A stretch of 40,312 nt of DNA, from assembly GCA_030615165.1 (NCBI GenBank), contig JAUWZW010000002.1, positions 1 to 40,312 on the forward strand, read 5' to 3'. Position 1 is the stretch's first letter, and every line of letters begins with the position of its first letter. Position numbers and translations under genes: made by a program. The notes under the pieces were generated by a model that saw nothing but the letters and a program-made list of their open reading frames with translations, was not told the DNA's origin and ran no database searches. This stretch comes from Candidatus Aenigmatarchaeota archaeon. GTDB lineage: Archaea; Aenigmatarchaeota; Aenigmatarchaeia; QMZP01. This document shows positions 537-35,645 of the stretch, in pieces.

Positions 537-1979
537 ATGAAAGACAAAACCATACTTTGTGTTCTCATCCTGATTTACGTATCCTTGTTTATAACCTTTT
601 ATCCACCTTTCTATACAACTCGGGATGAGAGCAACTTCATAAGATTGGCTTTCTTTTTCAGGGAGGGTAAAATCTTTGTAACAGATTCCCAATACCAGTT
701 GAGTTTTGGTAGATTTGAAGGCGCTTATTACCCATACTTCATAGGCCAATCCATAATGTTGCTGCCTTTTACCTTTTTAGGATGGAACGCGGCCTTCCTT
801 TTGGGAATGGTTCTCCACATAATAGCTTCGATTATTTTTTACAGAATAGTAGTCGAGAAACAGAAAAAAAGCATATTCTATATCGCCCTTTTCCTGTTCT
901 TTCCATATTTTATTTATTACAGTACCACCCTTTTCTCAGATTTCTCTGCCGGTGTTTTGGCTCTATTGGCATTCTATTTTTATCTGAGTAAGGATAGAAA
1001 ACAGAACATCCTTTCAGGAGCCCTTTTCGGGTTTGTATGTGTAGTAAAATACACAAACATCCTTATTTTCATACCGTTTTTTGTTTACACCCTTCTCAAA
1101 AACAGGAAGAAATTGCTGTATCTCCTGGCAGGGTTACTTCCATTTGCAGCATTCATACTTGTTTATAACACCCTGATTTTCGGGGGACTCTTTGAAAGCC
1201 CACATGCTGGTATCGAGGTTTTAGGAACTGGTGAATCAAGTGTTACAGCCTTTTCCCCTGCCAACTACTTGGTATATCTCCCATTTATCATCTTCAGATT
1301 ACTCATTATTTATCCCCTGATGTTCTTTGCCCCATTTTTCTACAGGAAGGAGGGCAGATGGGAAATACTGGGCGCATATCTGCTGTTCCTCCTCTTTTTC
1401 GGTGCCAGATTCCAATCAGGCTATGGGTTTGGATTGGGCCCGGCCACCTTAACCAGGTATATTTTGCCTGTTATGCCACTCATTCTACTAACATACAGCG
1501 ATTTTGTAGGCAGGATTATTGAGAAAGCAAAACCGATTAAAAAAATATTTAAGCCAGCAGCTGTATTAGTTTCTATTGTTTTGATTGCTGGAAGCCTTGT
1601 GATATTGAGTGGTCAACATCAGTACCTTTCCCAACAATACGATGTGAGTGCTAAAATACATAGCAGCACCTTAAACAACTCCCTGATAATAGGAGAGAGG
1701 GATATCGCCAGATATTTAATGGAACCCTTTGGTATGAGGAGATATCTAGAAACCTACACATACATAGATTTCTCTGAATTTATTGATAATAATACATTTA
1801 TTGTGCACAAAAAATTCCCGGAGGGTGTTGCTACAGGATTTCTGCTGAATTTCTCTAAAACAACAGAAAATCTTATTGCCCAGATGAACGTGACACTGGT
1901 AGAAGAGGAGGATTACCAACCTATAGAAGGTCTAATAAAAAGCAGACCCTTCAAATTGCAAATTTTCAAAGTGGACTAA
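537..1979 (+). CDS. GT-C fold membrane glycosyltransferase (PMT/ArnT-like, family 39/83-like)
   Basis: N-terminal TM followed by RDE motif, about 11 TM helices, LFSD and KY motifs, RYILP near the C-terminal TM, soluble C-terminal domain. Confidence 0.7.
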   Translation: MKDKTILCVLILIYVSLFITFYPPFYTTRDESNFIRLAFFFREGKIFVTDSQYQLSFGRFEGAYYPYFIGQSIMLLPFTFLGWNAAFLLGMVLHIIASIIFYRIVVEKQKKSIFYIALFLFFPYFIYYSTTLFSDFSAGVLALLAFYFYLSKDRKQNILSGALFGFVCVVKYTNILIFIPFFVYTLLKNRKKLLYLLAGLLPFAAFILVYNTLIFGGLFESPHAGIEVLGTGESSVTAFSPANYLVYLPFIIFRLLIIYPLMFFAPFFYRKEGRWEILGAYLLFLLFFGARFQSGYGFGLGPATLTRYILPVMPLILLTYSDFVGRIIEKAKPIKKIFKPAAVLVSIVLIAGSLVILSGQHQYLSQQYDVSAKIHSSTLNNSLIIGERDIARYLMEPFGMRRYLETYTYIDFSEFIDNNTFIVHKKFPEGVATGFLLNFSKTTENLIAQMNVTLVEEEDYQPIEGLIKSRPFKLQIFKVD

Positions 1980-1993
1980 AATATCCCAAACCA

Positions 1994-2653
1994 TTAAGGC
2001 AGTTTTTTGGCAATGCAAATAATATTCCTTCCCAACCTTTCAGGAAGGGGATACCAAAGAAGCTGCAATAAATACCCTCTTAGTTTATTAAATACGGGTC
2101 TGGGATGCACACACCACATTTTGATGATTTCGAATTTGTATCTTTTAAGAAATGTATTTAAAGTTTCAGCACAGTACCAATGAGTGTGGTCATGTAGAGA
2201 AACTCCAGAAATTTTATTTAATAACATCCTCTGAAGAAAGAAGACATGCGACTGCGCATTTGGTGTCGTGATTATTAATAAACCACCATTCTTTAAGTGC
2301 TTTCTTATATTCTCGAAACAAACCCCTGGATTATTCAGATGCTCAAGCACTTCATTTACCAAAACAACATCAAATTTTTCTTTTAAATCAAACGGCTTCT
2401 CTACGTTTTGATACTTTACACCAAATCCGAGTTTTTTAAGTTTTTCAATACCTTTTTTATTCAAATCAAGACCAACTATTTTTTTTGCTATTTTACTCGC
2501 TTTTCCATGAATCCAATTAACTCCGCCGTATTCATCAGTTTCCCCCATCCCAACACAACCCAACTCTAAAACCTTTTTATTTTCAAGAACTCCCATTTCG
2601 ATTATGGGGTCTATACGGCTTAAAACGAATTTTAACATAATGATACTTATCAA
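1994..2653 (-). CDS. Class I SAM-dependent methyltransferase
   Basis: VLELGC motif I, GLDLN, FDVVLVNEVLEHL, LKNGGLLIITTPN. Confidence 0.85.
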   Translation of the reverse strand: MISIIMLKFVLSRIDPIIEMGVLENKKVLELGCVGMGETDEYGGVNWIHGKASKIAKKIVGLDLNKKGIEKLKKLGFGVKYQNVEKPFDLKEKFDVVLVNEVLEHLNNPGVCFENIRKHLKNGGLLIITTPNAQSHVFFLQRMLLNKISGVSLHDHTHWYCAETLNTFLKRYKFEIIKMWCVHPRPVFNKLRGYLLQLLWYPLPERLGRNIICIAKKLP

Positions 2654-3137: not shown

Positions 3138-4433
3138 TTATTCAATTTCTCTTAAGACATCATGTAATGCATCACAAACTTTTTGTTGTTTCTCATAACT
3201 TAATTCAGGATACATTGGCAAAGAAAAAACGTTTTTGCAAGATGCTTCTGTATGAGGCAAATCCCCTTCCTTGTATCCTAAATATTTGTAACCATCCATT
3301 ATATGAATAGGCCACTCATAACTAATATTTAATAAAATCCCCCTTTCCTTTAATTTAGCTATAATTTCATCTCTTTTTGGATGATGACAAACATAAACAT
3401 AATATACTTGAGTGTTATTTTCAGCTGTTTTTGGCAAAATAAGAGAGGTATCTGTCAGCAACTTTCCATACCTTCTTGCAATCTCTTGCCTTTTTCTTAT
3501 ATATTCGTCTAAATGAGCAAATTTTTTCAAGAGAATTGCAGCATGAAGCTCGTCAAGTCTTGAATTATAACCAGATTCTATGGAAAAATATTTTCTTCTC
3601 ATGCCATACATTCGCAATCCTTTTATTCTTTCATAAAGAGTTTCATTGTTTGTCACAACCATCCCACCATCCCCAAAAGTTCCTAAAACTTTTGAAGGAT
3701 AAAATGAAAATGTTGCAACATCAGACATAGAACCAGCTTTTCTGCCTTTGTAAGTAGCCCCGTGAGCCTGAGCACAATCCTCAACAATCTTTAGTCCAAA
3801 TTCATCAGCCATTTCTTTAACTTTATCCATATCAACACACTGCCCGTATAAATGAACAGGCAAAATACATTTTGTTTTTTCTGTAATAGCATCTTTTAAT
3901 TTGAAAATATTCATCAAGCAAGTTTCTGGATTAATATCAACAAATTTAGTAGTTGCCCCAGTAGCTGTAATTGCTGCAACAGTTGGAACAGCAGTATTTG
4001 CAACACAAATTACTTCATCCCCGGGCCCAATATCTAAGGCTTTTAAACTTAAGAAAAGAGCATCTGTACCATTTTTGACTCCAATACCATACTTACAACC
4101 ACAATAATTTGAAAACTTATCTTCAAATCTTTTTACGTGGTCACCAAGTATTAAAACCCCAGATTCCAAAACATTTTTAATTGCAGAATGAATTTCATCT
4201 TTTTCTTTTTCATACTCTTCTAAATAACTCCACACCTTTATATCCATTTTTTTTAATATATTAGAATCCCACCCCCGAGGATGATCTGTTTTTTCCCTTT
4301 CTGATTCTATTAATGCTTCATCTGAATTCTTTTGTTGAAGTTGTTCAACTTCCTCTTTGCTTTGCCCAGCCTCAACCAATCCTACTTTATTAACCATATT
4401 TTTCTCATCAATTTTTTCTTTAACTTCTTCCAT
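3138..4433 (-). CDS. DegT/DnrJ/EryC1/StrS PLP-dependent sugar aminotransferase, EvaB/DnrJ-like (probable 3-aminotransferase)
   Basis: EDCAQAHGA, FSFYPSKVLG with catalytic Lys, GYNSRLDE. Core starts KVWSYLEEY, like EvaB/DnrJ. Alternative start at 4247. Confidence 0.92.
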   Translation of the reverse strand: MEEVKEKIDEKNMVNKVGLVEAGQSKEEVEQLQQKNSDEALIESEREKTDHPRGWDSNILKKMDIKVWSYLEEYEKEKDEIHSAIKNVLESGVLILGDHVKRFEDKFSNYCGCKYGIGVKNGTDALFLSLKALDIGPGDEVICVANTAVPTVAAITATGATTKFVDINPETCLMNIFKLKDAITEKTKCILPVHLYGQCVDMDKVKEMADEFGLKIVEDCAQAHGATYKGRKAGSMSDVATFSFYPSKVLGTFGDGGMVVTNNETLYERIKGLRMYGMRRKYFSIESGYNSRLDELHAAILLKKFAHLDEYIRKRQEIARRYGKLLTDTSLILPKTAENNTQVYYVYVCHHPKRDEIIAKLKERGILLNISYEWPIHIMDGYKYLGYKEGDLPHTEASCKNVFSLPMYPELSYEKQQKVCDALHDVLREIE

Positions 4434-4434
4434 T

Positions 4435-5931
4435 TTAAATCAAACCCAGACAAGATATTAATCCTCTTGCATCAATATTTAAATAACTGTGTTTCAAAAG
4501 TTCCATTATTTGGCCAAGACTTACCCACATATAATTTTCAGGAATATCTAATGAAGCTGAAGAATCTAATTCTAATATCATATGTTTGTTCTGCGAATGG
4601 AAAAATCTTCCTCCTTCATCAGACTGAATAGTAGAATATCTTATCTGGATTGGAGAAGCATTGATAAATAATTCTAAAAAGGGAGGCCTGTCCTGTTGTT
4701 GCACTCTATACCGTGCATTATTACATGCCACTGTTGGATTAATTTCCACGATATTAAAACTTCCAGGCTCCAGCCTTGCCTGAATCAAAAAATGAATCAC
4801 CCTGTTAATCTTCTTAGTAAGAAAACCAACCAATCCATAAGAAGGTTGTTTAAGTAAAGGTTGTGTCCAGCTTGTAATTTCACGATTGCCTGCCTGAACA
4901 GCTACAGCAATCACTGAAAAAAATTGTTTAGTCTTGTGTTTTATCTCTCTCTCGGTGCGCATCCAATCAGAAACATCTTTTAATGGAATCTCCTCAATTT
5001 TCAATTCATATTTTGACTTCATTTCAGTTAACCAATTAAGTATTTCAGCTAATGGCTTATGCACGTTTTTTTTATCAATTAATGAAATAAGCAAGTCTCT
5101 TTTGAATCCTTCAGAAATATTCTTAAAAAGCTCACTTTGAAGAAAGTTCTCTAGTGACAGAGATTCATACTGTTTCTCTAATTCTTGGCTTATAAAAGGG
5201 ACACATGATAAAACAGATCTAGCATCCATATTCACAAAATTATCTATAAGTAAGAGTTTTTTAATCTGTCCTAGTGTTAGCCAGCAAAAATCATCATATA
5301 TAGAAACATCTTCTTCTACCTCTACAATCATATTCCTATTTCTTTTTTTCAAAAATATTCCTCCATATTCTGTCTGAAGCTGATCAACTAAAATTTTTGA
5401 CCTCATCTTATCAATAAAAAACTCCAAATAAAGAGGCCTTTTTCCTTTATGAACCTGAGTATAATTACTCTTTGTTGCCTGTACTGTAGGAGATAATTGA
5501 ATTATATTTGGATTGCCTGGTTCCATTTTTGCTTGCATAAGAAAATACCTAACTCCATCAAATTTTTTTGTTATGATCCCAAGAATTCCAATCTCTGGCT
5601 GATCAATAATTGGCTGATCCCATTTATCTATTGCCCCAAAATTTGTAGACACTCTTATTCCTTTAATCTTAAAGAATTTTCCAGATTCATGGATAAGATT
5701 TTGTGTTTCATTCTCAAAATACCACTTATCTAATTTATCAAAAGGAATTTGCTTTACTATAAATCGATTTGCTTTTTTTCTGGATTCAAACCACAACATA
5801 AATTTTTCTAATGTTTGAAACTGGTTTTTTTCTGTAAGTGCAGACCTAAGAAAACCGTTCTCTTTAGACTCTTCAGAATAATCCTTTAAAAATTCCTGCC
5901 TTCCTTTTATTTTCCCTTTTTGAAAGTTCAT
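4435..5931 (-). CDS. NDP-hexose 2,3-dehydratase (EvaA-like)
   Basis: Two repeated domains with WDQPIIDQPEIGILG, QAKMEPGN, QLSPTVQATKSNY, SDEGGRFF motifs. Confidence 0.95.
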   Translation of the reverse strand: MNFQKGKIKGRQEFLKDYSEESKENGFLRSALTEKNQFQTLEKFMLWFESRKKANRFIVKQIPFDKLDKWYFENETQNLIHESGKFFKIKGIRVSTNFGAIDKWDQPIIDQPEIGILGIITKKFDGVRYFLMQAKMEPGNPNIIQLSPTVQATKSNYTQVHKGKRPLYLEFFIDKMRSKILVDQLQTEYGGIFLKKRNRNMIVEVEEDVSIYDDFCWLTLGQIKKLLLIDNFVNMDARSVLSCVPFISQELEKQYESLSLENFLQSELFKNISEGFKRDLLISLIDKKNVHKPLAEILNWLTEMKSKYELKIEEIPLKDVSDWMRTEREIKHKTKQFFSVIAVAVQAGNREITSWTQPLLKQPSYGLVGFLTKKINRVIHFLIQARLEPGSFNIVEINPTVACNNARYRVQQQDRPPFLELFINASPIQIRYSTIQSDEGGRFFHSQNKHMILELDSSASLDIPENYMWVSLGQIMELLKHSYLNIDARGLISCLGLI

Positions 5932-5970
5932 CTATTTAAACTCCAAATATTTTATTAATAAATATTTATA

Positions 5971-7752
5971 TTGTTTAATAACAATAAACTATTTAAAAGA
6001 ATTTTAAGATCCTTTCTTATGAACAGTTTTAGAATAGAAAAAGAAAAAAAAAGGTGCAAAGTTTGTAGAGCTAATGCTCTAATAGAATTTATTTCTTTTG
6101 GCCAGATGCCTGTAACAGGTGCTTATTTGAAAAAAGAAGACTTAGACAAGCCAGAATACACTTATAACATGACTGTTGGATTTTGTGAAAATTGTAAGAT
6201 GGTGCAGCTTATTGAAGTAGTTCCTTATGAAAAATATATTATTTCAGATGGGAAAGGTAAAACTAATTATGCATTCTACTCATCGACCTCTGAATTTATG
6301 CAGCAGCATTTTGCTGAACTTGCAAAAGAAGTTGAAGAAAGATTTTTGGATTCTATTAATCCAAGAGTTGTAGAAATAGGAAGTAATGATGGGATTATGC
6401 TTAAAGTATTTAAAGAGAGAAGCAATGTAATAGGTATTGAACCCTCTACAAATGTTGCGGAGGTTGCACAAAAACAAGGAATAAAAACAATAACTGAATT
6501 TTTTACTGAAGCACTCGCAAGAAAGCTTGTTGATGAGAAAGAAAAGTTTAGGGTCGTTCTTTCTACAAATGTCACATTAAACATAATTGATATTAATGAT
6601 TTTATGAGGGGAGTGAAAACACTTCTCGACGATAAAGGAGTATTTATTACAGAAGACCCACATATATTAGGCATCTTAGAAAAAAACTCTTATGACCAGA
6701 TATATGAGGAACATATATGGTATTTCTCTCTTACTTCTTTATCAAATTTATACGAAATGCATAGCATGGAAATATTCGATGCAGAAAAACAATGGGTTCA
6801 TGGCGGCTCTATGAGAGTTTATGCTTGTAAAAAAGGGGCTTATGAAAAAACAGATAGATTAAAGAGGTACCTTAAGATTGAAGAAGAAATGAAAATAGGT
6901 TCTTTAGAGATTTATTCTCAGTTTGCTAACAATGTGGAAGAAAACAAACAAAAGCTCATATCTCTTTTGAAAGATTTGAAAGCTCAAGGAAAAAAGATTG
7001 TCGGCTATGCTGCTTCTTGCAAGAGTAGTACTGTTATGAATTATTGCGGCATTGGAACAAAAATCCTAGACTATATTTCTGATTCTACTCCATTCAAACA
7101 AGGATTATATACTCCTGGAAAACATATACCAATACTCTCACCAGATGTTTTTCACAATGATAAGGATATAGATTATGCATTTTTATTTATTTGGAATCAT
7201 GCTAAAGAAGTTATAGAAAAAGAACAGGAATTTTTAAGGAGAGGTGGAAAATTCATAACCCACTTACCTACAGCAAGAATCATAAGTCCAGAAGAATTTA
7301 TTTCTGATGAAGAAAAAAAAATTGAAATTAAAAATCTAAAAGTTTTCCATGAGGGAGCAGAAGGGCATTTATTTGAAACCTTAAGAAGCGACGATGGGAT
7401 ATTCGACGGAGTCTTTGGGCAAAATTTTGTTTCATTTGTAAATCCAGGAATAATAAAAGGTTTTCACAGACATAAAAGTCTCACCGAATATACCACCTGC
7501 ATAAAAGGAAATATTCTTTATGTTTTAGTAAAAGAAGTAATTGGGGGGCAGCCAATTATAAAAAAGATAAAAATGGGAGAAGATAATATGATTATGATTA
7601 AAACCCCTCCTGGATTTTGGCACGGATATGTTCCTTTAGGAAACCAGGAAGCAGTTGTTTTATACACAATGGACAAACCATATGATCCAAATAATATCGA
7701 CCAAGAAGACAAAGACCCACACGCATTTGGTGATATTTGGAAACTCGATTAA
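5971..7752 (+). CDS. NDP-sugar C3-methyltransferase (EvaC/TcaB9-like) fused to RmlC-like 3,5-/5-epimerase cupin
   Basis: Zn-binding CxxC...CxxC, EIGSNDG, YDQIYEEH, HGGSMR, DSTPFKQG motifs. C-terminal PGIIKGFH...PPGFWHGY cupin. ATG start probably 6019. Confidence 0.92.
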   Translation: MFNNNKLFKRILRSFLMNSFRIEKEKKRCKVCRANALIEFISFGQMPVTGAYLKKEDLDKPEYTYNMTVGFCENCKMVQLIEVVPYEKYIISDGKGKTNYAFYSSTSEFMQQHFAELAKEVEERFLDSINPRVVEIGSNDGIMLKVFKERSNVIGIEPSTNVAEVAQKQGIKTITEFFTEALARKLVDEKEKFRVVLSTNVTLNIIDINDFMRGVKTLLDDKGVFITEDPHILGILEKNSYDQIYEEHIWYFSLTSLSNLYEMHSMEIFDAEKQWVHGGSMRVYACKKGAYEKTDRLKRYLKIEEEMKIGSLEIYSQFANNVEENKQKLISLLKDLKAQGKKIVGYAASCKSSTVMNYCGIGTKILDYISDSTPFKQGLYTPGKHIPILSPDVFHNDKDIDYAFLFIWNHAKEVIEKEQEFLRRGGKFITHLPTARIISPEEFISDEEKKIEIKNLKVFHEGAEGHLFETLRSDDGIFDGVFGQNFVSFVNPGIIKGFHRHKSLTEYTTCIKGNILYVLVKEVIGGQPIIKKIKMGEDNMIMIKTPPGFWHGYVPLGNQEAVVLYTMDKPYDPNNIDQEDKDPHAFGDIWKLD

Positions 7753-7760
7753 TATTTCGA

Positions 7761-8331
7761 TTAAATAATCTTCTTATAAAACTCAACAGTTTTTTCAATC
7801 ATTTCTGGAGTTGGAATTTTCTCAATCTCAAATCCCAATCTATCTTTAACAACTCTCTGAAGCTTTTCCAACACTTCCTTAAAACTTCTGCCTTCACCAG
7901 AACCAATAACATAATACTCTCCTTTTTTTTCAGATAAAGCAGCATATACACATGTCTTGTTAATACACTCAATTGACAAAAGTAAAGGTATATTTAATTT
8001 TCTTTTAATTAAATGCCCTATTACCCTTGGCAAGACACCATTTTGGGCATGAATCAAATCAATTTTATTCTTTTTTACCAACCCAATTGCTTTTCTGTAA
8101 AATAGGAGATACTCAAATTTATGTAATCCATGATGTCCAAAAACAGGCGTCCTAAAAATTTTAATATTAAATTCCTTCTCTTCTTTAAACCTTTGGCGAG
8201 TGGGGGGTAAAGACAAAAATATTATGTCCCTGCTTATTCAATTCTTTTAATAAACCAGAACAATAAATTTCTCTACCACCACCCCCTTTCACATTCAGGG
8301 AAAAAGTATGTGTGATGTAAAAAATATTCAT
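7761..8331 (-). pseudogene. Frameshifted GT4 N-terminal fragment fused to an SDR epimerase C-terminal fragment
   Basis: ATG 8331 MNIFYITHTF..GGGREIY..L..QGHNIFVFTP, frameshift at the G6 run 8202-8207, continues DLIHAQN, then switches to epimerase tail GEYYVIGSGEGRSF...IEKTVEFY. Confidence 0.7.
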
Positions 8332-8373
8332 CTTTAATCACCACTTAATTATATTAAAAGTTTTTTATAATCA

Positions 8374-9381
8374 TTATGTGTACTCCTTTAATTTTTCTGC
8401 ATAGAAGCTAACAGTCCTTTCCAAACCCTCTTCAAAACTCACCTTGGGATACCATCCTATATCCTTATTAAATCTGGAAAAATCTACCACAACATCTCCT
8501 ATGTCCAGTTTCTTTTTATCCTCTGGGAACGGAACATGTTTTATGGTTGTTGAGCGGTTCATAATCCTTTTAACAGTTTCATTGACAGCAACAACCATAT
8601 CTTTAAATGAAATACCTCTGCCTGTACCTATTAAATAATATTTGCCTCTGGCCTTGCTGGATGACTGGAAGGCCAGGAGAAAAGCATCAACAACGTTTTG
8701 CACATAATTATAATCTCTGAGAAATTTCCCATCATCGTAAACTGTGATGGGCTCACCAAATATAGCCTTTTTTATCGTATTGTTAAGCACGCCTCTGTGG
8801 GGGTTAATTAATTCTTGTCTTTCTCCGAATATATTTGCGAGCCTTAAAGTAACTGTTTTTAAACCGTAAACGTTATGATAAATCTGCAAATATTTTTCAC
8901 ATGCCAGTTTGTTGGCATCATATATTGATAGAGGATTCGTGGCCAGATTCTCATTTACAGGTAATTTAGCTATTTTTCCTATCTCCGCAACTGTTCCAGA
9001 GAATATAATACAGGTGCTGTCATTATATTTCCTCGAGGCCTCAAGTATGTTCAATGTTCCATTGCAATTTATATCCAGGTCCAACTGCGGATTTTCCATA
9101 GAAACAAAATTACTGGTTTGAGCACCTAAATGAAAAATTACGTCTTTTTCTGGAACCACTTTTTCTATTTTTCCTTCCTCCCTGATATCACCCTTTACAA
9201 ATTTGACCTTGTTTCTAATCCCCTTAATATTTCTGGCTTTTTTTAAAGACCTGCCATATAAAGTTACATCTGCCCCTAATTTCACACATCTGTGGGCCAG
9301 ATTGCTGCCTATGAAACCCAGACCACCGGTGATTAAGACCTTCTTGTCTTCCAGGCCCTTTATTTTAAAACCCTTTTTCAT
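8374..9381 (-). CDS. NAD-dependent epimerase/dehydratase (extended SDR; candidate NDP-sugar 4-ketoreductase)
   Basis: ITGGLGFIG, YDANK catalytic motif, RDYNYV. Confidence 0.9.
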   Translation of the reverse strand: MKKGFKIKGLEDKKVLITGGLGFIGSNLAHRCVKLGADVTLYGRSLKKARNIKGIRNKVKFVKGDIREEGKIEKVVPEKDVIFHLGAQTSNFVSMENPQLDLDINCNGTLNILEASRKYNDSTCIIFSGTVAEIGKIAKLPVNENLATNPLSIYDANKLACEKYLQIYHNVYGLKTVTLRLANIFGERQELINPHRGVLNNTIKKAIFGEPITVYDDGKFLRDYNYVQNVVDAFLLAFQSSSKARGKYYLIGTGRGISFKDMVVAVNETVKRIMNRSTTIKHVPFPEDKKKLDIGDVVVDFSRFNKDIGWYPKVSFEEGLERTVSFYAEKLKEYT

Positions 9382-9433
9382 ATGATAGACTATACGATAT
9401 TGTTTTATAAATCTGCTGTTTAGTTATATATTA

Positions 9434-9721
9434 GTGCAAAATCACTTGAGGAAATTTATATGGACACTTCAAAAGATAGAAGAAATTTGGAGCCAAATAG
9501 GAAATGATTTAATAGAATATATTACAGACAATACACCAAAAAAACAGGGACTTTTTACATCAGGTATGCACATACCAGTAGTGCCTCCCAAAAAATTTAA
9601 ACAGGATAAACCAGACCATGTTTTGCTCCTAGCGTGGAATCACGAAGCTGAAATTTTGGAAAAGGAATACAGAGGAGGAGGCAAGTTTATAATACCTGTA
9701 TCAAATGTAAAAATAATTTAG
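9434..9721 (+). pseudogene. C-terminal remnant of a second sugar C-methyltransferase
   Basis: YITDNTPKKQGLFTSGMHIPV...PDHVLLLAWNH...GGKFIIP aligns with the C-MT C-terminus in 5971..7752. Most of the N-terminal part is missing. Confidence 0.75.
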
Positions 9722-9722
9722 C

Positions 9723-10676
9723 CTATAAGGTACGGCTATTGATTTTTATAGGATTTCTGTACCACAGCCCAAAACCCGGAATACCTGTAATATAGTCAGT
9801 TATTAGCATAAGAAGCGAGAGGGCAATAGCTGATTCAGGTGCTATCCCTGCATAAGCCAGGAAAAATACCATCGTGACATCCCTTGTCCCGAGACCAGAA
9901 AAAGAGATCGGCAGTATGAATAAAAGATTAACAATGGGAATTACAGTAAATAAAAGCCCATAAGGTACATTTAAACCTAATGCAAGAGCGAAAATCCAGA
10001 CATAAAAAATAGTCAGGGCCCAGGAAAACAAGGTTAATACTAGATTAACGAACATTAACATCTTTCGCTCGAGCAGCAGCTCTAACCCAGAATAAAAATC
10101 ATTGTAAACACCCTTAATTTTGGTCTTATGCTGCTCTGGAATAAGCCTTCTATAAAAAGGTCCCATGATAAACGAAACTGCCTCTTTTCTGGAAAACAAA
10201 AATATAATACCCAGAAAAACCGCAAACAAAATAACAGTCAAAAGCAGTAATGATGTATCTTTAACATAAAATGCAGCAAACGTTCCCAACCCAATTATAC
10301 ATAGCGTAAACAGGACGAAAATATCTACTATCCTGTCCACTATAACCGTTGTAAGGGATTTTCCGATTCTTTCTTTCAGATAGTATGATCTTGCAAGGTC
10401 TCCCAGCTTACCAGGAGTTATAAGACCTAAAGAAAACCCGACCAGCCATGCCTTCATTGCCTCAGCAAACGGGCAGGCCAGTTTATAAGAGCTTATAAGC
10501 ACCTTCCATTTTGCAGTTTTTATTAGAATTACAAAAACTGTAAAAATTAAACCACAAATATAGAAATAAAAATTAAGACCGGCTAAAGTTTTCCATATCT
10601 CCAAAAGGTTTAGATTTAGAATTAGATACAGGAATATAAAAATACCTATCAGGGGGAGGAATTTTGAGATTTTCAT
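9723..10676 (-). CDS. Lysylphosphatidylglycerol synthase TM / flippase-like protein
   Basis: TPGKLGDLAR, VDRIVD, LPISFSGLGTRD motifs. Confidence 0.85.
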   Translation of the reverse strand: MKISKFLPLIGIFIFLYLILNLNLLEIWKTLAGLNFYFYICGLIFTVFVILIKTAKWKVLISSYKLACPFAEAMKAWLVGFSLGLITPGKLGDLARSYYLKERIGKSLTTVIVDRIVDIFVLFTLCIIGLGTFAAFYVKDTSLLLLTVILFAVFLGIIFLFSRKEAVSFIMGPFYRRLIPEQHKTKIKGVYNDFYSGLELLLERKMLMFVNLVLTLFSWALTIFYVWIFALALGLNVPYGLLFTVIPIVNLLFILPISFSGLGTRDVTMVFFLAYAGIAPESAIALSLLMLITDYITGIPGFGLWYRNPIKINSRTL

Positions 10677-10765
10677 GAATAAGTTTTAACTTGAGTATAA
10701 ATATTCTTATATCTATTCTTTGGTATCCGAAGAAAACATTTAAAGGATTACTTAAACTGTATAAC

Positions 10766-11728
10766 ATGAAAACAATTTTGGTAACGGGCTGCGCAGGTTT
10801 TATAGGTTCTCATATAGCAGAACGGCTACTTAATGAGGGCCATATGGTTGTGGGTGTGGATAATTTTCATCCTTATTACCAAAGAGCATTGAAAGAGAGG
10901 AACATGGATGGATTCAAAAAACACAAAAACTTTAAATTTTTCGAGGGATCCATACTTGATGACAAGTTGCTGAATATTCTAGCAAAGGAGGACATAGATA
11001 TTATAAACCATCAGGCAGCAATAGCAGGTGTCAGGAATTCCATAAAATCTCCCTTAGAGTATTTGAGTATAAACACCCTAGGAACATTGAAACTTCTTGA
11101 CAGGTTCAGGGATGCGGAGAAATTCATATTTGCATCCTCATCTTCTGTATATGGCGATGTCGCGGATAATGAGTTGCCGATTAAGGAAGACAGGAAACCC
11201 AAACCCATATCACCATATGCTCTCTCCAAGTTGCAGGCAGAAGAGTGGTGTAAGCTCTTCTCTAATTTGTACGGCATCAGGTCAATTATTTTAAGATATT
11301 TCACAGTATATGGACCCCGTCAAAGACCGGACGAAGCAGTGGAAAAATTCATGAGAAAAATACTCTCCGGAGAACCCATAGAAATCTATGGCGATGGAGA
11401 GCAAACAAGAGATTTTACTTATGTGGGTGATGTTGTGAATGCCAATATACTCACTCTTTCTAAAGGAAGCGGTGTATTTAATATAGCCAGCGGGAAGAGG
11501 ATAAGCGTCAATAAGTTGGTAGAGCTTTTGAAAAAAGCAACAAAGAAGGAAGTAAAGGTAAACATGATAGAGAGACAGATAGGCGATGTTTCCCACACAT
11601 GGGCCAACATAGATAAATCAAAAAACGAGCTCGGATTCAGACCAGCCACTGATATAGAGACTGGACTAAGAAACCAATTCGAGCATGTTCAATCACTGGC
11701 AAAATCTCTTCCCACCCTTTCTGATTAA
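10766..11728 (+). CDS. NAD-dependent epimerase/dehydratase (UDP-glucose/glucuronate 4-epimerase-like)
   Basis: Start MKTILVTGCAGFIG; ASSSSVYG, YALSK, YFTVYGPRQRPD, RDFTYV. Confidence 0.9.
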   Translation: MKTILVTGCAGFIGSHIAERLLNEGHMVVGVDNFHPYYQRALKERNMDGFKKHKNFKFFEGSILDDKLLNILAKEDIDIINHQAAIAGVRNSIKSPLEYLSINTLGTLKLLDRFRDAEKFIFASSSSVYGDVADNELPIKEDRKPKPISPYALSKLQAEEWCKLFSNLYGIRSIILRYFTVYGPRQRPDEAVEKFMRKILSGEPIEIYGDGEQTRDFTYVGDVVNANILTLSKGSGVFNIASGKRISVNKLVELLKKATKKEVKVNMIERQIGDVSHTWANIDKSKNELGFRPATDIETGLRNQFEHVQSLAKSLPTLSD

Positions 11729-11769
11729 TAGGGATTGCTGCTGAAATTTTAAAAACTTAGAGCAACGTG

Positions 11770-11892
11770 TTATTTATCTTCAAGCCTTCCTTTCTTATAA
11801 GCTTCAAACTCCTTCCAGAAATCCACATTTGGCTCGTAGCCGAACTTTCTCTAGCCTTTGTGATGTCTCCACACCACCTCTCCGTTTCCGTG
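11770..11892 (-). pseudogene. Short frameshifted remnant of an SDR epimerase C-terminus
   Basis: Minus strand reads ETERWCGDITKARE / KFGYEPNVDF, the typical DixKA..lGyeP tail. Confidence 0.5.
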
Positions 11893-11930
11893 CTAGTAAT
11901 AGTTTAAATTCTGTATAGAGCCAAATGGGT

Positions 11931-12872
11931 TTATCGTGTTTTGAAATATTGTATGGTTTCCTTCAGCCCTTCTTCCAACCCGATTTTGGGTTCCCAGTTC
12001 AAAATCCTCTTTGCCTTGCTTATGTCAGGCCTTCTTCTGACAGGGTCATCACTTGGCAAGGGCTTGAAAACAATCTCTGAATTCGATTTCGTCAAATCCT
12101 TGACTATTTTAGCAAGATGCAAAATAGATGTTTCATTGGGGTCCCCTATGTTAAAGACCCCGCCGCTTAAACCATCTGTGAACATTAATTTTTCCAAGGC
12201 ATCTACCATATCAGAAATGTAACAGAAGCTCCTCGTTTGTTTTCCGTCACCGTAAACTGTTATTGGTTCACTCCTCAAGACCTGCATGATGAAATTCGGT
12301 ACCACTCTCCCGTCGTTTTTTCTCATTTTGGGGCCGAAGCAATTAAAAATCCTCGCTATCCTCACATCCATTTTATGGATTCTGCAGAAGGACATCGTTA
12401 AGGCCTCGGCGAATCTTTTTGATTCATCATAGCAGCTGCGCAGACCTATGGGATTAACATGACCAAAGTAAATTTCTTTCTGCGGATGTTGTTCAGGATT
12501 TCCATAAACTTCGGAGGTGGATGCCAACAAAAATCTTGCATTCTTTTCCCTAACCAGATTGAGCATGTGATAAGTTCCGAAAGAATTGGCGAGCATGGTT
12601 TTTATGGGGAGCTTCTGATAATCCACAGGAGATGCAGGGGAGGCCAGATGGAATATGTGGTCTATCTTGCCGGTTTTTTCTGCGCCCAGCGCTTTCGAGA
12701 CATCATGTTCGATTAAAGAAAAATTTTCATTTTTAATAAGACCCGCTACGTTATCCTTTGTCCCTGTGATGAAATTATCAACACAGACCACCCTGTAACC
12801 CCTTTCCAGCAAATCTTCACATAACCAGGAACCAATAAAACCAGCTCCTCCTGTCACAAGGCAAGTTTGCAT
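11931..12872 (-). CDS. UDP-glucuronate decarboxylase (UXS-like SDR)
   Basis: TGGAGFIGS, HLASPASP, ASTSEVYG, RSCYDESKR, DGRVVPNF, DDPVRRRPDI. Confidence 0.9.
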   Translation of the reverse strand: MQTCLVTGGAGFIGSWLCEDLLERGYRVVCVDNFITGTKDNVAGLIKNENFSLIEHDVSKALGAEKTGKIDHIFHLASPASPVDYQKLPIKTMLANSFGTYHMLNLVREKNARFLLASTSEVYGNPEQHPQKEIYFGHVNPIGLRSCYDESKRFAEALTMSFCRIHKMDVRIARIFNCFGPKMRKNDGRVVPNFIMQVLRSEPITVYGDGKQTRSFCYISDMVDALEKLMFTDGLSGGVFNIGDPNETSILHLAKIVKDLTKSNSEIVFKPLPSDDPVRRRPDISKAKRILNWEPKIGLEEGLKETIQYFKTR

Positions 12873-12873
12873 T

Positions 12874-13629
12874 TCAATCCCTCCTGTTGAGCAACTCTTT
12901 CTCTGTAGCCAAAAGAGCCTCATGCGTTCCTACATCCCTGTATATGCCCCTGTGCACAACAGCATAGCACGGCAGACCTTGTTTGAGCATTAATATTATG
13001 GAATCTGTTATCTGGTATTCACCCTTTGCCCCCTTGGGTGTTTTTTCTATAAATCCGAATATCTCCGGCTCGAAAACATAAACCCCGTTTATACCCAGCC
13101 ATTCTCCATTAGTTTTGAGCCTTTCCAGCTCTTCATCTGTCTGCGGCTTTTCCATCATATCAAGAATTTTTCCGTTTTTGTCTATCTTAACTATGCCATA
13201 TCTTTTCGGGTCTGTTATAGCTGAAAGCCCCAGGGTACACTTAGAACCTGTTTTCTTATGTAATTCAACCAAATCCCTGACCAATTTATCCTTGGGTTCT
13301 ATTATCTCATCACCCAATGTAGCAACAAAGGTTTCGTTGTTTACCAGGGGTTTTGCTATATAGATGGCCTTTGCAACACCCAGCAATTCTGTCTGAAATC
13401 TGTAGGAGACATCAACACCTGTCCATTTACCGTCCCTAAGATAGTCAAGAATAGCCCCTTTGTTGTTACCTACTATGACTATTATGTTTTTTACGCCACC
13501 CGCCTTGAAAAGGTCTACAGCATGCTGTAAAAGCGGCTTGCCGCACACATGTACCATTTCCTTGGGTATGGAATATGTTAACGGTTCCAATCTTTCTCCC
13601 TTCCCAGCAGCTAGTATAACACCTTTCAT
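12874..13629 (-). CDS. Sugar-1-phosphate nucleotidyltransferase (RmlA/GalU/AglF-like)
   Basis: MKGVILAAGKGERL..PKEM, EKP, GEYQITD, DVGT. SD GAGGT before ATG 13629. Confidence 0.9.
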   Translation of the reverse strand: MKGVILAAGKGERLEPLTYSIPKEMVHVCGKPLLQHAVDLFKAGGVKNIIVIVGNNKGAILDYLRDGKWTGVDVSYRFQTELLGVAKAIYIAKPLVNNETFVATLGDEIIEPKDKLVRDLVELHKKTGSKCTLGLSAITDPKRYGIVKIDKNGKILDMMEKPQTDEELERLKTNGEWLGINGVYVFEPEIFGFIEKTPKGAKGEYQITDSIILMLKQGLPCYAVVHRGIYRDVGTHEALLATEKELLNRRD

Positions 13630-13671
13630 ATACCTCGCCTTCCTATCGGTGACGGGGATTGCCTTCGGCAA

Positions 13672-15030
13672 TCAATCGACACCTCGCCTTGGATCTTTGT
13701 GATACTCAGTCTTCGACTGAGCCAATCTGCCTGGCCAGCAGATGCCCTCAAAATTCTTTACACTTGAAGGATTTAAAACCTTTCTACCCTCAATAATTAC
13801 CTTGTTTTTCATCACATCAAAGTCCTTGTCGGAGAGGTTCTTAAATTCTTTCCAGTTTGTCAAAATCAAGCAACCGTCCGCATCCTTCAGACACTCTCTG
13901 GAATTGCTGCAGTACTCTATATCCCCATGCATTTTCCTCATGTTATCCATTGCCTGAGGGTCATATGCTGAAACTTTTGCACCCCTTTCCTTAAGCATTG
14001 AAATAACATCAATGGCGGGTGCTTCCCTTACATCATCGGAATCGGGCTTGAATGCGAGACCAAGAGCCGCGATTTTCTTGTTCTGTAACCCGTCAGTCCT
14101 GTTTTCCAGCATATCCACCAAAATCCTTCTCTGCTTCTTGTTCACATTCAGGACAGTGTTTAGAATCTGTGTATCATAACCCAAAGCCTTTCCCTTTGCT
14201 ACGATGGCAGCAATATCTTTGGGAAAACATGAACCCCCAAAACCTGCCCCAGCCCGCAGGAATTTGGGTGATATTCTGCTATCCATACCAACACCCTTCA
14301 TCACATTATATACATCAATCCCTAATCTCTTGCATATATTCCCAATCTCATTCGAGAGTGAAATCTTTGTTGCAAGCATTGCATTTGCAGCATACTTTAT
14401 CATCTCCGCTGTTTTCAGGTTTGTTCTCAAAACAGGGGCATTGAAATTGAAGTAAATCTTCTCTAAAACATCCCCGGACCTTTTATCATACTGCCCGATA
14501 ACAATTCTGTCCGGGTTTAGAAAATCCTCCAATGCATTACCTTCCCTGAGGAACTCCGGATTCACGCACACCCCTATATCATCACCAACCCCCTTCCCGG
14601 ATTTTTCTTCCAGATGCGGGATAACATTGATTTCTGTGGTACCCGGCACAACAGTGGATTTGACTACAATAACATGATAGCCTTCCTTGTTTTTTAGGGC
14701 AGTTCCTATGTCCTTTGATACCTGTTCAATATACCTTAAATCCATGGAACCATCCTGATTGGAGGGTGTTCCAACACAAATCATGGTCAGGTCGGAATTT
14801 GTAATCGCCCGGGTAAGGTCTGTTGTTGCCCTGAAAACACCCTTTGCTGTAACATTTTCCAGGTATTTTTTCAACTGTTTTTCATAAATTGGCGGCTCGG
14901 CTTTGTTTATCTGTTTTATCTTTTTTTCATCAACATCCATGCAAATAACATTGTTCCCCATCTTCGCGAATCCTACGCCTGTGCACAGCCCAACATAACC
15001 CGTGCCGATAATGCTTATATTCATGCTCAT
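13672..15030 (-). CDS. ugd: UDP-glucose/GDP-mannose 6-dehydrogenase
   Basis: IGTGYVG, KSTVVPGT, NPEFLREG, GFGGSCFPKD, GLAFKPDSDDVRE. Confidence 0.93.
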   Translation of the reverse strand: MSMNISIIGTGYVGLCTGVGFAKMGNNVICMDVDEKKIKQINKAEPPIYEKQLKKYLENVTAKGVFRATTDLTRAITNSDLTMICVGTPSNQDGSMDLRYIEQVSKDIGTALKNKEGYHVIVVKSTVVPGTTEINVIPHLEEKSGKGVGDDIGVCVNPEFLREGNALEDFLNPDRIVIGQYDKRSGDVLEKIYFNFNAPVLRTNLKTAEMIKYAANAMLATKISLSNEIGNICKRLGIDVYNVMKGVGMDSRISPKFLRAGAGFGGSCFPKDIAAIVAKGKALGYDTQILNTVLNVNKKQRRILVDMLENRTDGLQNKKIAALGLAFKPDSDDVREAPAIDVISMLKERGAKVSAYDPQAMDNMRKMHGDIEYCSNSRECLKDADGCLILTNWKEFKNLSDKDFDVMKNKVIIEGRKVLNPSSVKNFEGICWPGRLAQSKTEYHKDPRRGVD

Positions 15031-15082
15031 ATTTACTCAGTAAGGTATTAATATTTATATTTCTGATTTTAAACTGATATTT

Positions 15083-15799
15083 ATGAAAAAGATTGAAACA
15101 GCAGTGCTGCTTTGCGGAGGAAAAGGAACAAGGCTGAGACCTGTAACGTATGAGATACCAAAGTCCCTTGTACCGATACAGGGTAAAACCCTCTTGGAAC
15201 ACCTGCTCGATCTCCTGAAGAAGTATGGAATAAAAAATGTAATATTATCCGTTGGCTACCTAAAGGACAACATAAAGCAGCATTTTGGGGATGGTTCGAG
15301 ATTCGGTATAAATATAACTTATGTTGAGGAGGATACACCGTTGGGAACAGCCGGACCTTTGGGGTTACTCAAAACCCTCAACATGTTACCGAACAGGGCA
15401 TTCATAACCTCAAACGGAGACGAACTCAAGGATATAAATATAACAGAGATGTACAAACTACACAAAGCGAAGAATGCACTGGCAACCATAGCCCTGACAA
15501 GGGTAGAAGACCCAAGCCAGTATGGTGTTGCAAGACTGGAGGGAAACAGGATTCTGGAGTTTGTGGAAAAGCCAAAAAAGGGGGAAGCACCATCCAATTT
15601 AATCAATTCAGGGTTCTATATACTGGAGCCATCAATTGTAGATATAGTCCACAATGGTTTTGCGATGCTCGAAAAAGATGTTTTCCCGCTCCTTGCAAGA
15701 CAGGGCAAACTTTTCGGTTTTTCATTCAAAGGGCAATGGTTTGATATCGGAAACCCCGAGAGACTTGAAAAAGCAAGAAGGGAATGGAAGGGGATTTAA
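15083..15799 (+). CDS. Nucleotidyltransferase (mannose-1-phosphate guanylyltransferase-like)
   Basis: GGKGTRLRP..PK, PLGTAG, NGD, FVEKP, WFDIG. Confidence 0.9.
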   Translation: MKKIETAVLLCGGKGTRLRPVTYEIPKSLVPIQGKTLLEHLLDLLKKYGIKNVILSVGYLKDNIKQHFGDGSRFGINITYVEEDTPLGTAGPLGLLKTLNMLPNRAFITSNGDELKDINITEMYKLHKAKNALATIALTRVEDPSQYGVARLEGNRILEFVEKPKKGEAPSNLINSGFYILEPSIVDIVHNGFAMLEKDVFPLLARQGKLFGFSFKGQWFDIGNPERLEKARREWKGI

Positions 15800-34712: not shown

Positions 34713-35645
34713 ATGGCGAATAACAACAACAGTTTGTGCATAATCGGGCATGAGAAGAGCGAAACAAACCTGAAGCTGTTGGAGGAAGCAAAGAAGAGGT
34801 TTGGCTCTGTCTTCTTTGTCCCAATCGATGGTATTGGTATTGGTCTGAACGAGAAATTTTCCATATCATACAGGGTTTCTGACATACTTAAATTCAAGGC
34901 TGTGTTCCCCAGAATTCCGAGGCAGTTCTGCTCCTATGCATATCAGCTTCTTTCCCTGTTCCCGGAGGACACATACATGCCCATAAAACCAATCTCCCTC
35001 CTCCTTGCCGATGAGAGATTCTTTCTTCTGACTGTTTTGAGAAAGAGGGGGATATCCACGCTAAACCTCCACCTTACAAGGTCCTCAAAGGCAGCGTACA
35101 GGATTATTGAGGAGGGCAAATACCCCCTTGTGATAAGGGCCCCTGAAAAGAAGACAGGGGTTGTTGTGAAGAATGCAACAGAGGCAAAGAGTATCATAAA
35201 TGCCTTGGGCAGCCTAGACCAGCCAATAATGATAGAGGATGTTGTAAAGGATATGATCTCTATTTATGTTGCTGAGCCAGATGTTATAGCGTCTGTGAAG
35301 AAAAAGACAAAGGAAAAGGATGTTGTGTTTGCCCATGGCAAGCTGAAGAACCAGAAGATAAACCTGGAGACGCAGCACCTTGCCCTTGATGCTGCAAAGG
35401 CAGTTGAGGCAGGTGTTGCAAGGATTGATATAAGCCTCAATGGAAACCCCAGGGTTATTAATGTGCAATTAGACCCAGACCTCATTGCACCGAGCAAGGC
35501 AACAGGCATCAACATACCCGAGAAAACCATCGCTTCCATCTATGAGAACTACAAGGCACACAGGCAGAAACCAACACTGATGAAGTTCTTCGAGGATGCA
35601 AAATCCATTATGAAGGATGTGCTGAAGACCAAACAGCTCATATAG
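34713..35645 (+). CDS. RimK-like ATP-grasp fold protein, apparently degenerate
   Basis: AVFPRI, YPLVIR, LALDAAKAV..GVARIDI..PRVINV..TGINI follow the RimK layout, but the K-P-x-x-G-x-x-G loop and E-x-N are missing. Confidence 0.7.
   Translation: MANNNNSLCIIGHEKSETNLKLLEEAKKRFGSVFFVPIDGIGIGLNEKFSISYRVSDILKFKAVFPRIPRQFCSYAYQLLSLFPEDTYMPIKPISLLLADERFFLLTVLRKRGISTLNLHLTRSSKAAYRIIEEGKYPLVIRAPEKKTGVVVKNATEAKSIINALGSLDQPIMIEDVVKDMISIYVAEPDVIASVKKKTKEKDVVFAHGKLKNQKINLETQHLALDAAKAVEAGVARIDISLNGNPRVINVQLDPDLIAPSKATGINIPEKTIASIYENYKAHRQKPTLMKFFEDAKSIMKDVLKTKQLI

Follow-up and report, generated by a model that had tools for sequence, protein, structure and literature searches.

In actinomycetes, branched 2-deoxy amino sugars of the same kind as vancosamine, kijanose and mycarose are the textbook 'antibiotic sugars'. 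Among the described systems, dTDP-L-epivancosamine is made for chloroeremomycin in Amycolatopsis orientalis by the enzymes EvaA to EvaE, the mycarose route runs through TylX3, TylC1, TylC3, TylK and TylC2, and the C-methyltransferases KijD1 and TcaB9 (PDB 5t64 and 3ndi) belong to the D-kijanose and D-tetronitrose pathways. The subject of this report is a gene island with the chemical logic of EvaA–EvaE on a contig of Candidatus Aenigmatarchaeota archaeon (GenBank assembly GCA_030615165.1, contig JAUWZW010000002.1). The contig, hereafter the window, was analysed at its full length of 40,312 nucleotides and is the entire contig C74 of genome G000 (958 kb, 75 contigs, 81.6% complete). Four intact genes in the island, with five activities, are predicted to convert an NDP-4-keto-6-deoxyhexose to an NDP-3-amino-3-C-methyl-2,3,6-trideoxyhexose, a reading to which a probability of roughly 0.55 is assigned. 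Among the papers listed by a literature search, which were judged by titles and abstract openings and included few from subscription journals, none described an archaeal branched amino-sugar pathway or an archaeal NDP-hexose 2,3-dehydratase.

Relative to EvaA–EvaE, the window shares four of the five protein families and differs in that the C-methyltransferase and the cupin are fused, the cupin is shorter (~145 amino acids (aa), where EvaD has ~200), the place of an RmlD-like reductase is taken by a GalE-like short-chain dehydrogenase/reductase (SDR) of the NADP type, neither RmlA/RmlB nor a nonribosomal peptide synthetase (NRPS) is present, and the genes lie in the glycan locus of an archaeon. 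The initial annotation had proposed (epi)vancosamine as the product; the enzyme logic behind that proposal (2,3-dehydratase, C3-type aminotransferase, C3-methyltransferase, cupin, reductase) holds, while the stated configuration was too specific and the reductase is not of the EvaE/RmlD kind. The stereochemistry of the product cannot be read from the sequence, and the name that can be claimed is accordingly that of the vancosamine class and not vancosamine itself.

Four genes for five predicted activities

Open reading frames (ORFs) were annotated with Pfam, NCBIfam and PDB sequence searches, and structure models were searched with Foldseek. All of the gene types first proposed for the island (2,3-dehydratase, DegT aminotransferase, C-methyltransferase, RmlC-like protein and extended SDR) were recovered at the positions first given in the ORF, Pfam and PDB searches, with the correction that they are not all adjacent separate genes: the C-methyltransferase and the cupin form one 593-aa ORF, and a relic ORF lies before the SDR gene. 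The four genes are full-length with conserved motifs, and comprise:

3138-4433, minus strand: DegT/DnrJ/EryC1 pyridoxal phosphate (PLP) aminotransferase, 431-aa ORF (PF01041, E 5.6e-115)
4435-5931, minus strand: NDP-hexose 2,3-dehydratase of the EvaA type, 498 aa, two PF03559 (Hexose_dehydrat) domains (E 3.6e-150)
5971-7752, plus strand: C-methyltransferase-cupin fusion, a single 593-aa ORF with the cupin at residues ~446-593
5971-7305, plus strand: C-3 sugar C-methyltransferase domain of the fusion, with PF08421 (Zn-binding), PF13489 (S-adenosylmethionine, SAM) and PF08484
7306-7752, plus strand: small RmlC-like cupin domain of the fusion, candidate 5-epimerase (AlphaFold2 model, pLDDT 92, 22-sequence alignment)
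8374-9381, minus strand: extended SDR of the NADP type, candidate 4-ketoreductase (PF01370 and PF16363)

The 2,3-dehydratase has the two-domain organization of the EvaA family, and EvaA itself (4j7g) is its only match in the PDB (417 bits, E 1.1e-123), with both halves covered. PF03559 is present in 6 of 371 genomes of the phylum and in none of the 46 other genomes of the window's family, and the remaining five in-phylum matches are open frames of only 211–269 aa. The best database relatives of the dehydratase are at most 67% identical, and bacterial in every case where an organism is named (12 of 12); likewise, all 40 loci with a relative in species-representative genomes belong to bacterial metagenome-assembled genomes (MAGs). 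Phylogenetically (IQ-TREE quick search with SH-aLRT support, as for all trees; 107 rows), the window dehydratase falls in a four-member clade (SH-aLRT 98) with those of loci L119, L107 and L043, which are the loci in this tree with a C-methyltransferase beside the dehydratase. Separately, half-size single-domain PF03559 proteins occur in the same phylum, including one within a 677-aa open frame that also holds a C-methyltransferase (L085, G030:C4, ~8430-10412), a possible dehydratase-methyltransferase fusion, and further long frames (733, 741 and 582 aa; G244, G047 and G109) contain C-methyltransferases.

The fusion ORF likely starts at M17 (nt 6019). Its methyltransferase domain has KijD1 and TcaB9 as best solved relatives over ~410 residues, and scores higher against these two 3-amino-sugar enzymes (304 and 299 bits) than against TylC3 (249 bits). 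Four Zn cysteines are retained, as is a Y..EEH motif that aligns with the YDEH of KijD1 and TcaB9, placing the domain in the Zn/SAM C-3 methyltransferase family of EvaC, TcaB9 and KijD1. Unlike KijD1 and TcaB9, the window protein has a C-terminal cupin and an Asn in place of the His of the 'CHIP' motif, and no nitrososynthase or C4-aminotransferase partner accompanies it.

The top 50 Foldseek matches of the cupin model are RmlC-type 3,5-, 3- or 5-epimerases (TM 0.73–0.82), except for 3ejk (titled 'dTDP sugar isomerase', unverified) and artificial metalloprotein entries. A profile of the cupin matches S. tokodaii RmlC (4e-11), NovW (2e-5), EvaD (1.5e-4), QdtA (1.2e-3) and FdtA (0.038) in the PDB, and the domain keeps the His of the 'GLH' motif and one Tyr. 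A role as an FdtA/QdtA-type 3,4-ketoisomerase is disfavoured by the same comparison (4e-11 to 1e-5 for the RmlC type against 1.2e-3 for QdtA and 0.038 for FdtA); some homologues of the fusion carry a precomputed PF05523 hit. Among the 120 best database relatives, the window protein included, 100 are 535–710 aa long and carry a cupin family as well, i.e., they are fused. There are also 19 stand-alone cupins (55–65% identity), several of them on contigs equal in length to contigs with an unfused C-methyltransferase, and in some relatives the two genes are split yet adjacent. In one relative (P0224) the order is reversed, with the cupin before the methyltransferase. Fusion in both orders together with the split neighbours suggests that the two domains act successively on the same substrate, and since C5 is the sole epimerisable position next to the 4-keto group after C3 methylation, the cupin is considered a candidate 5-epimerase, by analogy with EvaD, which epimerises C5 after EvaC has acted.

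The fusion enzyme is common among DPANN archaea and metagenomes. Members with the same architecture are 57–65% identical to the window protein, and 11 of the 12 that are organism-named are archaeal (four Pacearchaeota, three Nanoarchaeota, three 'archaeon' and one Odinarchaeota; the other is from Omnitrophota). Within the phylum, 56 of 371 genomes have a match to the fusion query in its methyltransferase and/or cupin part, with 50% identity for the best C-methyltransferase. Several of the large C-methyltransferase clusters near the fusion protein are labelled mostly viral (Uroviricota), a hint of a phage-borne family that is not used as evidence here.

The extended SDR possesses the Thr and YxxxK of its family and lacks Thr-Asp-Glu, the corresponding motif reading GTVAE. 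The Asp that follows strand beta-2 in the NAD-binding epimerases and dehydratases of the alignment is Arg/Lys in the window SDR and in its orthologues from L119, G336 and G351. Under the usual SDR cofactor rule, Arg/Lys after beta-2 goes with NADPH, and the residue pattern therefore indicates a reductase rather than an epimerase. An identity as dTDP-glucose 4,6-dehydratase was rejected on the lack of a TDE motif and on the TIGR01181 score (144.5 bits against a cut-off of 365.1).

The aminotransferase domain begins at residue 77 of its ORF, and the first 62 codons form a charged extension that is absent in 16 of 16 aligned homologues. The conserved core starts with M63 (nt 4247), which is possibly the genuine initiation codon. 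Its PDB matches are headed by 7b0d (338 bits), whose title says merely 'sugar transaminase from Archaeoglobus veneficus', followed by QdtB (305), DesV (288), HCAN_0200 (279), WlaRG and WlaRF (256 and 253), WbpE (253) and Pcryo_0616 (247); the first C4 enzyme in the list, GDP-perosamine synthase (207 bits), comes behind this C3 group. With the structure model (pLDDT 92), every functionally named member of the Foldseek top group makes a 3-amino sugar according to its entry title. The scores against the NCBIfam equivalog models of C4 enzymes are all below cut-off (PseC 277/423.5; ArnB 207/631; LegC 203/420; WecE 200/375; DesI 170/650). The initial annotation would have been undone by an aminotransferase of the C4 kind, and the enzyme instead groups with the solved C3 enzymes.

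From these assignments a five-step route can be proposed. The EvaA-type dehydratase would remove the 2-hydroxyl group to leave a 3,4-diketo sugar, which the DegT enzyme would aminate at C3; the C-methyltransferase domain would then methylate C3 via the enolate of the remaining 4-keto group, the fused RmlC-like cupin would epimerise C5, the sole exchangeable position beside the 4-keto group, and the NADP-type SDR would reduce C4. A surface glycan would presumably receive the finished sugar, with a lipid carrier and the GT-C glycosyltransferase encoded next to the island as possible intermediaries.

Related loci and the position of the amino group

Relatives of the dehydratase were examined at 119 loci (40 genome, 80 metagenome, one under the score threshold), and 69 of these could be judged, having at least 700 nt upstream and at least 2,300 nt downstream of the dehydratase gene. 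One operon type, spanning many phyla of uncultivated bacteria, accounts for 48 of the 69 and consists of an FdtA-like cupin, the dehydratase, a GFO/IDH/MocA oxidoreductase and an aminotransferase, with no C-methyltransferase. These bacterial cassettes hold the closest relatives of the window dehydratase (up to 67% identity) and aminotransferase (57–65%), and their oxidoreductase is KijD10-like (122 bits against 3rbv, 'sugar 3-ketoreductase'). Like the window genes, they are found among surface-glycan genes, and both a GT-C and a class I methyltransferase are close by, the latter following the aminotransferase gene in L013 (Desulfobacterales) and L015 (Omnitrophota) and being followed in L013 by a GT-C. 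The window differs from them in lacking the 3-ketoreductase and the FdtA-type cupin, in place of which it has the C-methyltransferase-cupin fusion and the SDR.

The gene pattern of the window is found in only one of the 69 loci, the 20-kb metagenome contig L119 (GC 29–36%). In addition to RmlB (with an STDEVYG motif), RmlA, RmlC, RmlD, a Wzx-type flippase and a GT10-like transferase, L119 encodes a 557-aa C-methyltransferase-cupin protein, the dehydratase, the aminotransferase and an SDR that is 51% identical to the window SDR, all in the same divergent layout. The five predicted activities thus recur there with a proper entry step and in a polysaccharide context. The window aminotransferase is sister to that of L119 (SH-aLRT 100; 63 rows). 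The two other members of the dehydratase clade, L043 (Parcubacteria) and L107, likewise have a C-methyltransferase divergent from the dehydratase, but they combine it with a GFO-type 3-ketoreductase and a full-size RmlC and have no aminotransferase, a mycarose-like set whose product would be a 3-hydroxy sugar where that of the window would be a 3-amino sugar. In the window's own order, two loci (L083, G336:C11, 2625-12361; and L084, G351:C2) contain RmlB, RmlA, three SDRs, a stand-alone cupin, a C-methyltransferase and a DegT aminotransferase without a 2,3-dehydratase. Their aminotransferases are 44–45% identical to that of the window, and two of the SDRs are 51% and 42–43% identical to the window SDR, the 51% orthologues being syntenic with the C-methyltransferase, cupin and aminotransferase genes. 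The product of these loci is conceivably a 4-amino-3-C-methyl-6-deoxyhexose.

The distribution of the cupins bears on where the aminotransferase acts. An FdtA-type cupin is present in 49 of the 50 judgeable loci with an aminotransferase and in 2 of the 19 without one, a co-occurrence that stems mostly from one conserved operon type, so that the loci are not independent and the support for C3 is reduced. The single aminotransferase locus without an FdtA-type cupin is L119, which holds the C-methyltransferase-cupin in its place. FdtA (PDB 2pa7 is titled 'isomerase'), QdtA and Tyl1a are 3,4-ketoisomerases that feed C3 aminotransferases. Because the nearest characterised enzymes act at C3, the window has no 3-ketoreductase, and an FdtA-type cupin accompanies the aminotransferase clade, the window enzyme probably acts at C3.

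If the aminotransferase acted at C4 instead, the dehydratase would be followed by 3-ketoreduction by the SDR, TylC3-like C3-methylation, C5-epimerisation and C4-amination, giving an NDP-4-amino-3-C-methyl-2,4,6-trideoxyhexose, a 4-amino analogue of mycarose. Such a route draws on the bacterial cassettes, whose aminotransferases, close to that of the window, sit beside a KijD10-type 3-ketoreductase that also permits a C4-amination (vicenisamine-like) reading; on the mycarose-like sets of L043 and L107, sister to the window by their dehydratases; and on G336 and G351, where a C3-methylated sugar could be aminated only at C4. Specificity for C3 or C4 has, moreover, switched within the DegT family, the C4 perosamine synthase outscoring DesI as a match of the window enzyme. 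It is nevertheless rather unlikely, in that every characterised nearest aminotransferase structure is a C3 enzyme, a C4 route would leave the FdtA-type cupin that accompanies the aminotransferase clade without a function, the window has neither a GFO nor an aldo-keto reductase (AKR)-type 3-ketoreductase, and the C-methyltransferase scores better against the 3-amino-sugar enzymes. We also know of no precedent for an extended SDR as a sugar 3-ketoreductase.

Entry step and points of weakness

Apart from the dependence among the FdtA-bearing loci and the ambiguity of their KijD10-type reductase, several observations weigh against a 3-amino-3-C-methyl product. In the C-methyltransferase, the Asn that replaces the 'CHIP' His of KijD1 is shared with 17 of 19 aligned family members, and the position is that of TcaB9 His181, which is reported to have been probed by mutation in that enzyme. 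In the cupin, which is short (~145 aa) and matches EvaD only at E 1.5e-4, a Glu replaces the catalytic Lys of the 'AKY' motif of M. tuberculosis RmlC. The SDR does not resemble RmlD or EvaE, itself of the RmlD-like family (36 bits for TIGR01214, whose cut-off is 224; 48 bits for PF04321 against 159 bits for PF01370), and among solved structures it comes closest to 4-epimerases and CDP-tyvelose 2-epimerase. In L119, the C-methyltransferase (8233-9906) is without the 'EH' of YDEH and the SDR (12573-13565) has Val for the catalytic Tyr; this locus, the only full look-alike, may be decaying or may contain sequencing errors. From the gene set of G336 and G351 no 3-amino-3-methyl sugar can be derived.

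The same holds for the entry step. An RmlB 4,6-dehydratase, which the initial annotation had named as a gene to look for, was not found in the 81.6%-complete G000, where no match reaches the TIGR01181 cut-off and no 4,6-dehydratase of the dTDP, CDP, GDP or UDP-GlcNAc class was found by motif or model. G000 has only four extended SDRs, and TDE is absent from all of them: their motifs are GTVAE, SSSSVYG, STSEVYG (UXS-like, encoded beside UDP-glucose dehydrogenase) and, in a protein with a zinc-ribbon insert, SSMSVYG. The assembled genome also has no separate RmlC or RmlD, and two nucleotidyltransferases (NTP-transferases) near the island score under the RmlA cut-offs; a supply of dTDP-4-keto-6-deoxyglucose by RmlA and RmlB was thus not recovered. 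RmlB is above cut-off in just 4 of 47 genomes of the family. The functional reading is at its weakest in the unrecovered 4,6-dehydratase. Such a gene may nevertheless exist, since the contig starts within the locus and 18% of the genome is outside the assembly. As an aside, the SDR with the zinc-ribbon insert (G000:C21:772-1884, L005) is a 370-aa GalE-like protein, with the four-cysteine zinc ribbon inserted between its halves, that adjoins Alg13/Alg14-like half-glycosyltransferase genes and a GT2 gene.

These absences raise the question of whether the cassette is an orphan, with intact genes and an idle pathway that lacks a 4,6-dehydratase, either because the acquisition is recent or decaying or with the precursor coming from the host cell. 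That none of 4,6-dehydratase, RmlC and RmlD was found, that RmlB is so infrequent in the family, that three gene relics lie within 7 kb (see below) and that L119 has substitutions at catalytic positions would all fit an orphan cassette. We consider it quite unlikely, given that the four genes are full-length and keep their conserved motifs, that the genome is only 81.6% complete and the contig starts within the glycan locus, its first ORF (3-500) being cut off at the 5' end, and that RmlA and RmlB, which are located 4–8 kb from the C-methyltransferase in L119 and G336, could sit just beyond the contig end.

A further possibility takes the lack of any class of 4,6-dehydratase at face value. Because a UDP-glucose dehydrogenase and a UXS/ArnA-like decarboxylase are encoded within a few kb of the island, a UDP-4-keto-pentose from the decarboxylase might serve the EvaA-type enzyme as substrate, which would place a 3-amino-3-C-methyl-2,3-dideoxypentose on a DPANN surface. 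This is a long shot, and to our knowledge that class of sugar has never been described. A route from an NDP-4-keto-6-deoxyhexose to the 3-amino-3-C-methyl trideoxyhexose remains the preferred interpretation of the island.

Composition, relics and the glycan locus

The window is composed of genes with distinct GC contents. The aminotransferase, the dehydratase, the C-methyltransferase-cupin and a chimeric ORF have 31–33%, a second tier of 37–39% includes the GT-C, the flippase-like gene, the SDR and an epimerase-like SDR, and the UXS-like gene, the UDP-glucose dehydrogenase (UGDH), the NTP-transferases, Pus10 and the thermosome have 43–48%, with a genome mean of 43.6% (standard deviation 3.6%, 2-kb windows). 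The impression that the block is AT-richer than the housekeeping half is borne out by the GC windows (32–33% for the aminotransferase, dehydratase and C-methyltransferase-cupin against 43–48%). Of the 846 2-kb windows in the genome, six of the 15 with the lowest GC (<33.5%) fall in the island region, and the tetranucleotide correlation of the island with the genome (0.79) is near the 5th percentile for 7.4-kb pieces. Three gene relics accompany the intact genes:

2713-2792, intergenic: relic of the flippase-like gene, two abutting pieces in which the start and the end of the gene are joined
7761-8216, minus strand: chimeric relic ORF of 151 aa, with a GT4-like N-terminal piece (weak PF13439, residues 14-81) and an SDR-like C-terminal piece
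9491-9727, plus strand: relic of another, different C-methyltransferase gene, of which the final ~80 codons survive up to the natural stop

The last ~55 residues of the chimeric ORF resemble the C-terminus of proteins of the type of the SDR at 8374-9381 (alignment judged by eye), and this ORF looks like a deletion scar. The methyltransferase relic is 48% identical to residues 359-441 of the fusion, with one TAG; its origin as a copy of the fusion gene was rejected, as it is 46% identical to the fusion and 41–54% identical to many in-phylum C-methyltransferases, several of them at 53–54%. The relic at the left edge matches the flippase-like gene at 9723-10676 in two places (blastn), namely at 9768-9806 in the 3' part of the gene (34 of 39 positions identical, 87%, E 2e-9) and at 10667-10710 across the gene start and the sequence upstream (37 of 44, 84%, E 2e-8). 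It has the same orientation as the gene, and the resulting direct repeat (families D1 and D2) brackets the island at 2.8–9.7 kb.

To either side of the bracketed segment, the window contains:

3-500: flippase-like ORF, open at its 5' end, so that the contig starts inside the glycan locus
537-1979, plus strand: GT-C (PMT_2/GT87-like) membrane glycosyltransferase, possibly acting on a lipid-linked sugar (PF13231, 27.6 bits, barely over the cut-off)
1994-2653, minus strand: class I SAM methyltransferase (PF13489, E 1.7e-17)
9723-10676, minus strand: flippase-like (LPG_synthase_TM/TIGR00374) membrane protein, intact (PF03706, E 7e-41)
10691-15799: nucleotide-sugar genes of the host locus, comprising a 4-epimerase-like SDR, a UXS-like decarboxylase, two NTP-transferases and a UDP-glucose 6-dehydrogenase (Pfam, NCBIfam)

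These neighbours are of the kinds first described for the locus (flippase-like, GT-C and nucleotide-sugar genes). The UGDH scores 511 bits against the AglM model, and the SDRs of the same segment have the motifs SSSSVYG and STSEVYG/YDESK. Matches to the flippase-like gene occur in 53 of the order's 91 genomes, the best of them 52% identical and from the same family, whose loci (46–53% identity) combine it with a GT-C, C-methyltransferases, SDRs and an NTP-transferase; by sequence it is native to the lineage. The GC tier of 37–39% to which it belongs is native as well, and the SDR itself may be. The GT-C is 31% identical to the GT-C of L184, a locus of the same family, and was rejected by sequence comparison as an orthologue of the GT-C in the bacterial cassettes. 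The class I methyltransferase at 1994-2653, which had been suggested to modify the sugar further, lies outside the repeat-bracketed island and has a sole PDB match (3cc8, 35 bits), with no TylM1/DesVI-like match that would make it a sugar N-methyltransferase; nor is it an orthologue of the methyltransferase in the bacterial cassettes, to which it has no significant similarity.

The right-hand 25 kb of the window are clearly archaeal, with Pus10 (including an archaeal THUMP domain) and a thermosome subunit (Pfam/NCBIfam), as well as an archaeal-type pilus ATPase, two T2SSF-like membrane proteins and DUF7289. Also noted there were a pair of oppositely oriented genes for RimK/ATP-grasp ligases (34713-35645 and 36500-37450) and, close to them, one for an M29-like aminopeptidase (37652-38737). 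No tRNA was found in the window, and no integrase or transposase family among the ORFs scanned, a scan that did not cover every small ORF.

On the strength of the GC tiers, the repeat of the flippase relic, the relic C-methyltransferase and the chimeric ORF, the aminotransferase, dehydratase and C-methyltransferase-cupin genes look like a cassette that entered a native archaeal glycan locus. The direct repeat would be the trace of a cassette that was integrated or exchanged by way of a flanking gene held in common or, alternatively, of a duplication followed by deletion. The origins of the island are mixed, the dehydratase and the aminotransferase having bacterial-type relatives and the fusion and the SDR archaeal ones. 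Horizontal acquisition, as originally proposed, is supported by the lower GC and by these relatives.

As an alternative, the low-GC segment could be bacterial DNA wrongly joined to the contig by mis-assembly or binning, for which the GC of 32% against 43.6%, the tetranucleotide correlation near the 5th percentile and the uniformly bacterial relatives of the dehydratase (12 of 12 organism-named proteins and 40 of 40 genome loci) could be cited. Such an artefact, which the initial annotation had held up as a danger to its proposal, is hardly credible. The segment is internal to one contig and has lineage-typical genes on both sides (the GT-C at 31% and the flippase-like gene at 46–53% identity), its SDR is 51% identical to same-order archaeal orthologues that are syntenic with C-methyltransferase, cupin and aminotransferase genes, 11 of the 12 organism-named relatives of its C-methyltransferase are archaeal, and the relic at its left edge is 84–87% identical to the flippase-like gene at its right edge, a relationship that a chimeric join would not create. 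The native flanks, the archaeal affinities of the SDR and the C-methyltransferase and the flanking relic repeat likewise speak for an archaeal host.

Clues to the destination of the sugar come from the GT-C gene and the two flippase-like genes around the island. Enzymes of the GT-C type take lipid-phosphate-linked donors, following an Arn-type logic. GT2 genes are present elsewhere in G000, two of them beside another flippase-like gene on contig C18. With a largest ORF of at most 604 aa, the window encodes no NRPS or polyketide synthase (PKS), in agreement with the first description of the locus and with a glycan context that is not that of an antibiotic. In this context a surface glycan is the presumed recipient of the sugar, and the S-layer, pilins and lipids are not distinguishable as acceptors.

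The chemistry proposed here is already known, and the novelty lies in its packaging, with a methyltransferase fused to a candidate epimerase and a reductase that is not RmlD-like, in its occurrence within the glycan locus of an archaeon, and in the scars of insertion that can still be seen. The locus and its relatives, namely one metagenome contig with the same set, the mycarose-like sets of a Parcubacterium and dozens of cassettes for 2-deoxy amino sugars in bacteria, suggest that the chemistry of the actinomycete sugars also serves cell-envelope glycans in uncultivated prokaryotes with small genomes. Transfer of the cassettes between bacteria and archaea also seems to occur. As compact predicted catalysts, the fusion enzyme and the reductase are potentially useful for glycodiversification, and the value of the locus lies in a clear and testable prediction of its product. 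For the organism itself, an episymbiotic archaeon, a surface sugar that is cationic, methyl-branched and 2-deoxy could affect attachment to the host or the evasion of viruses.

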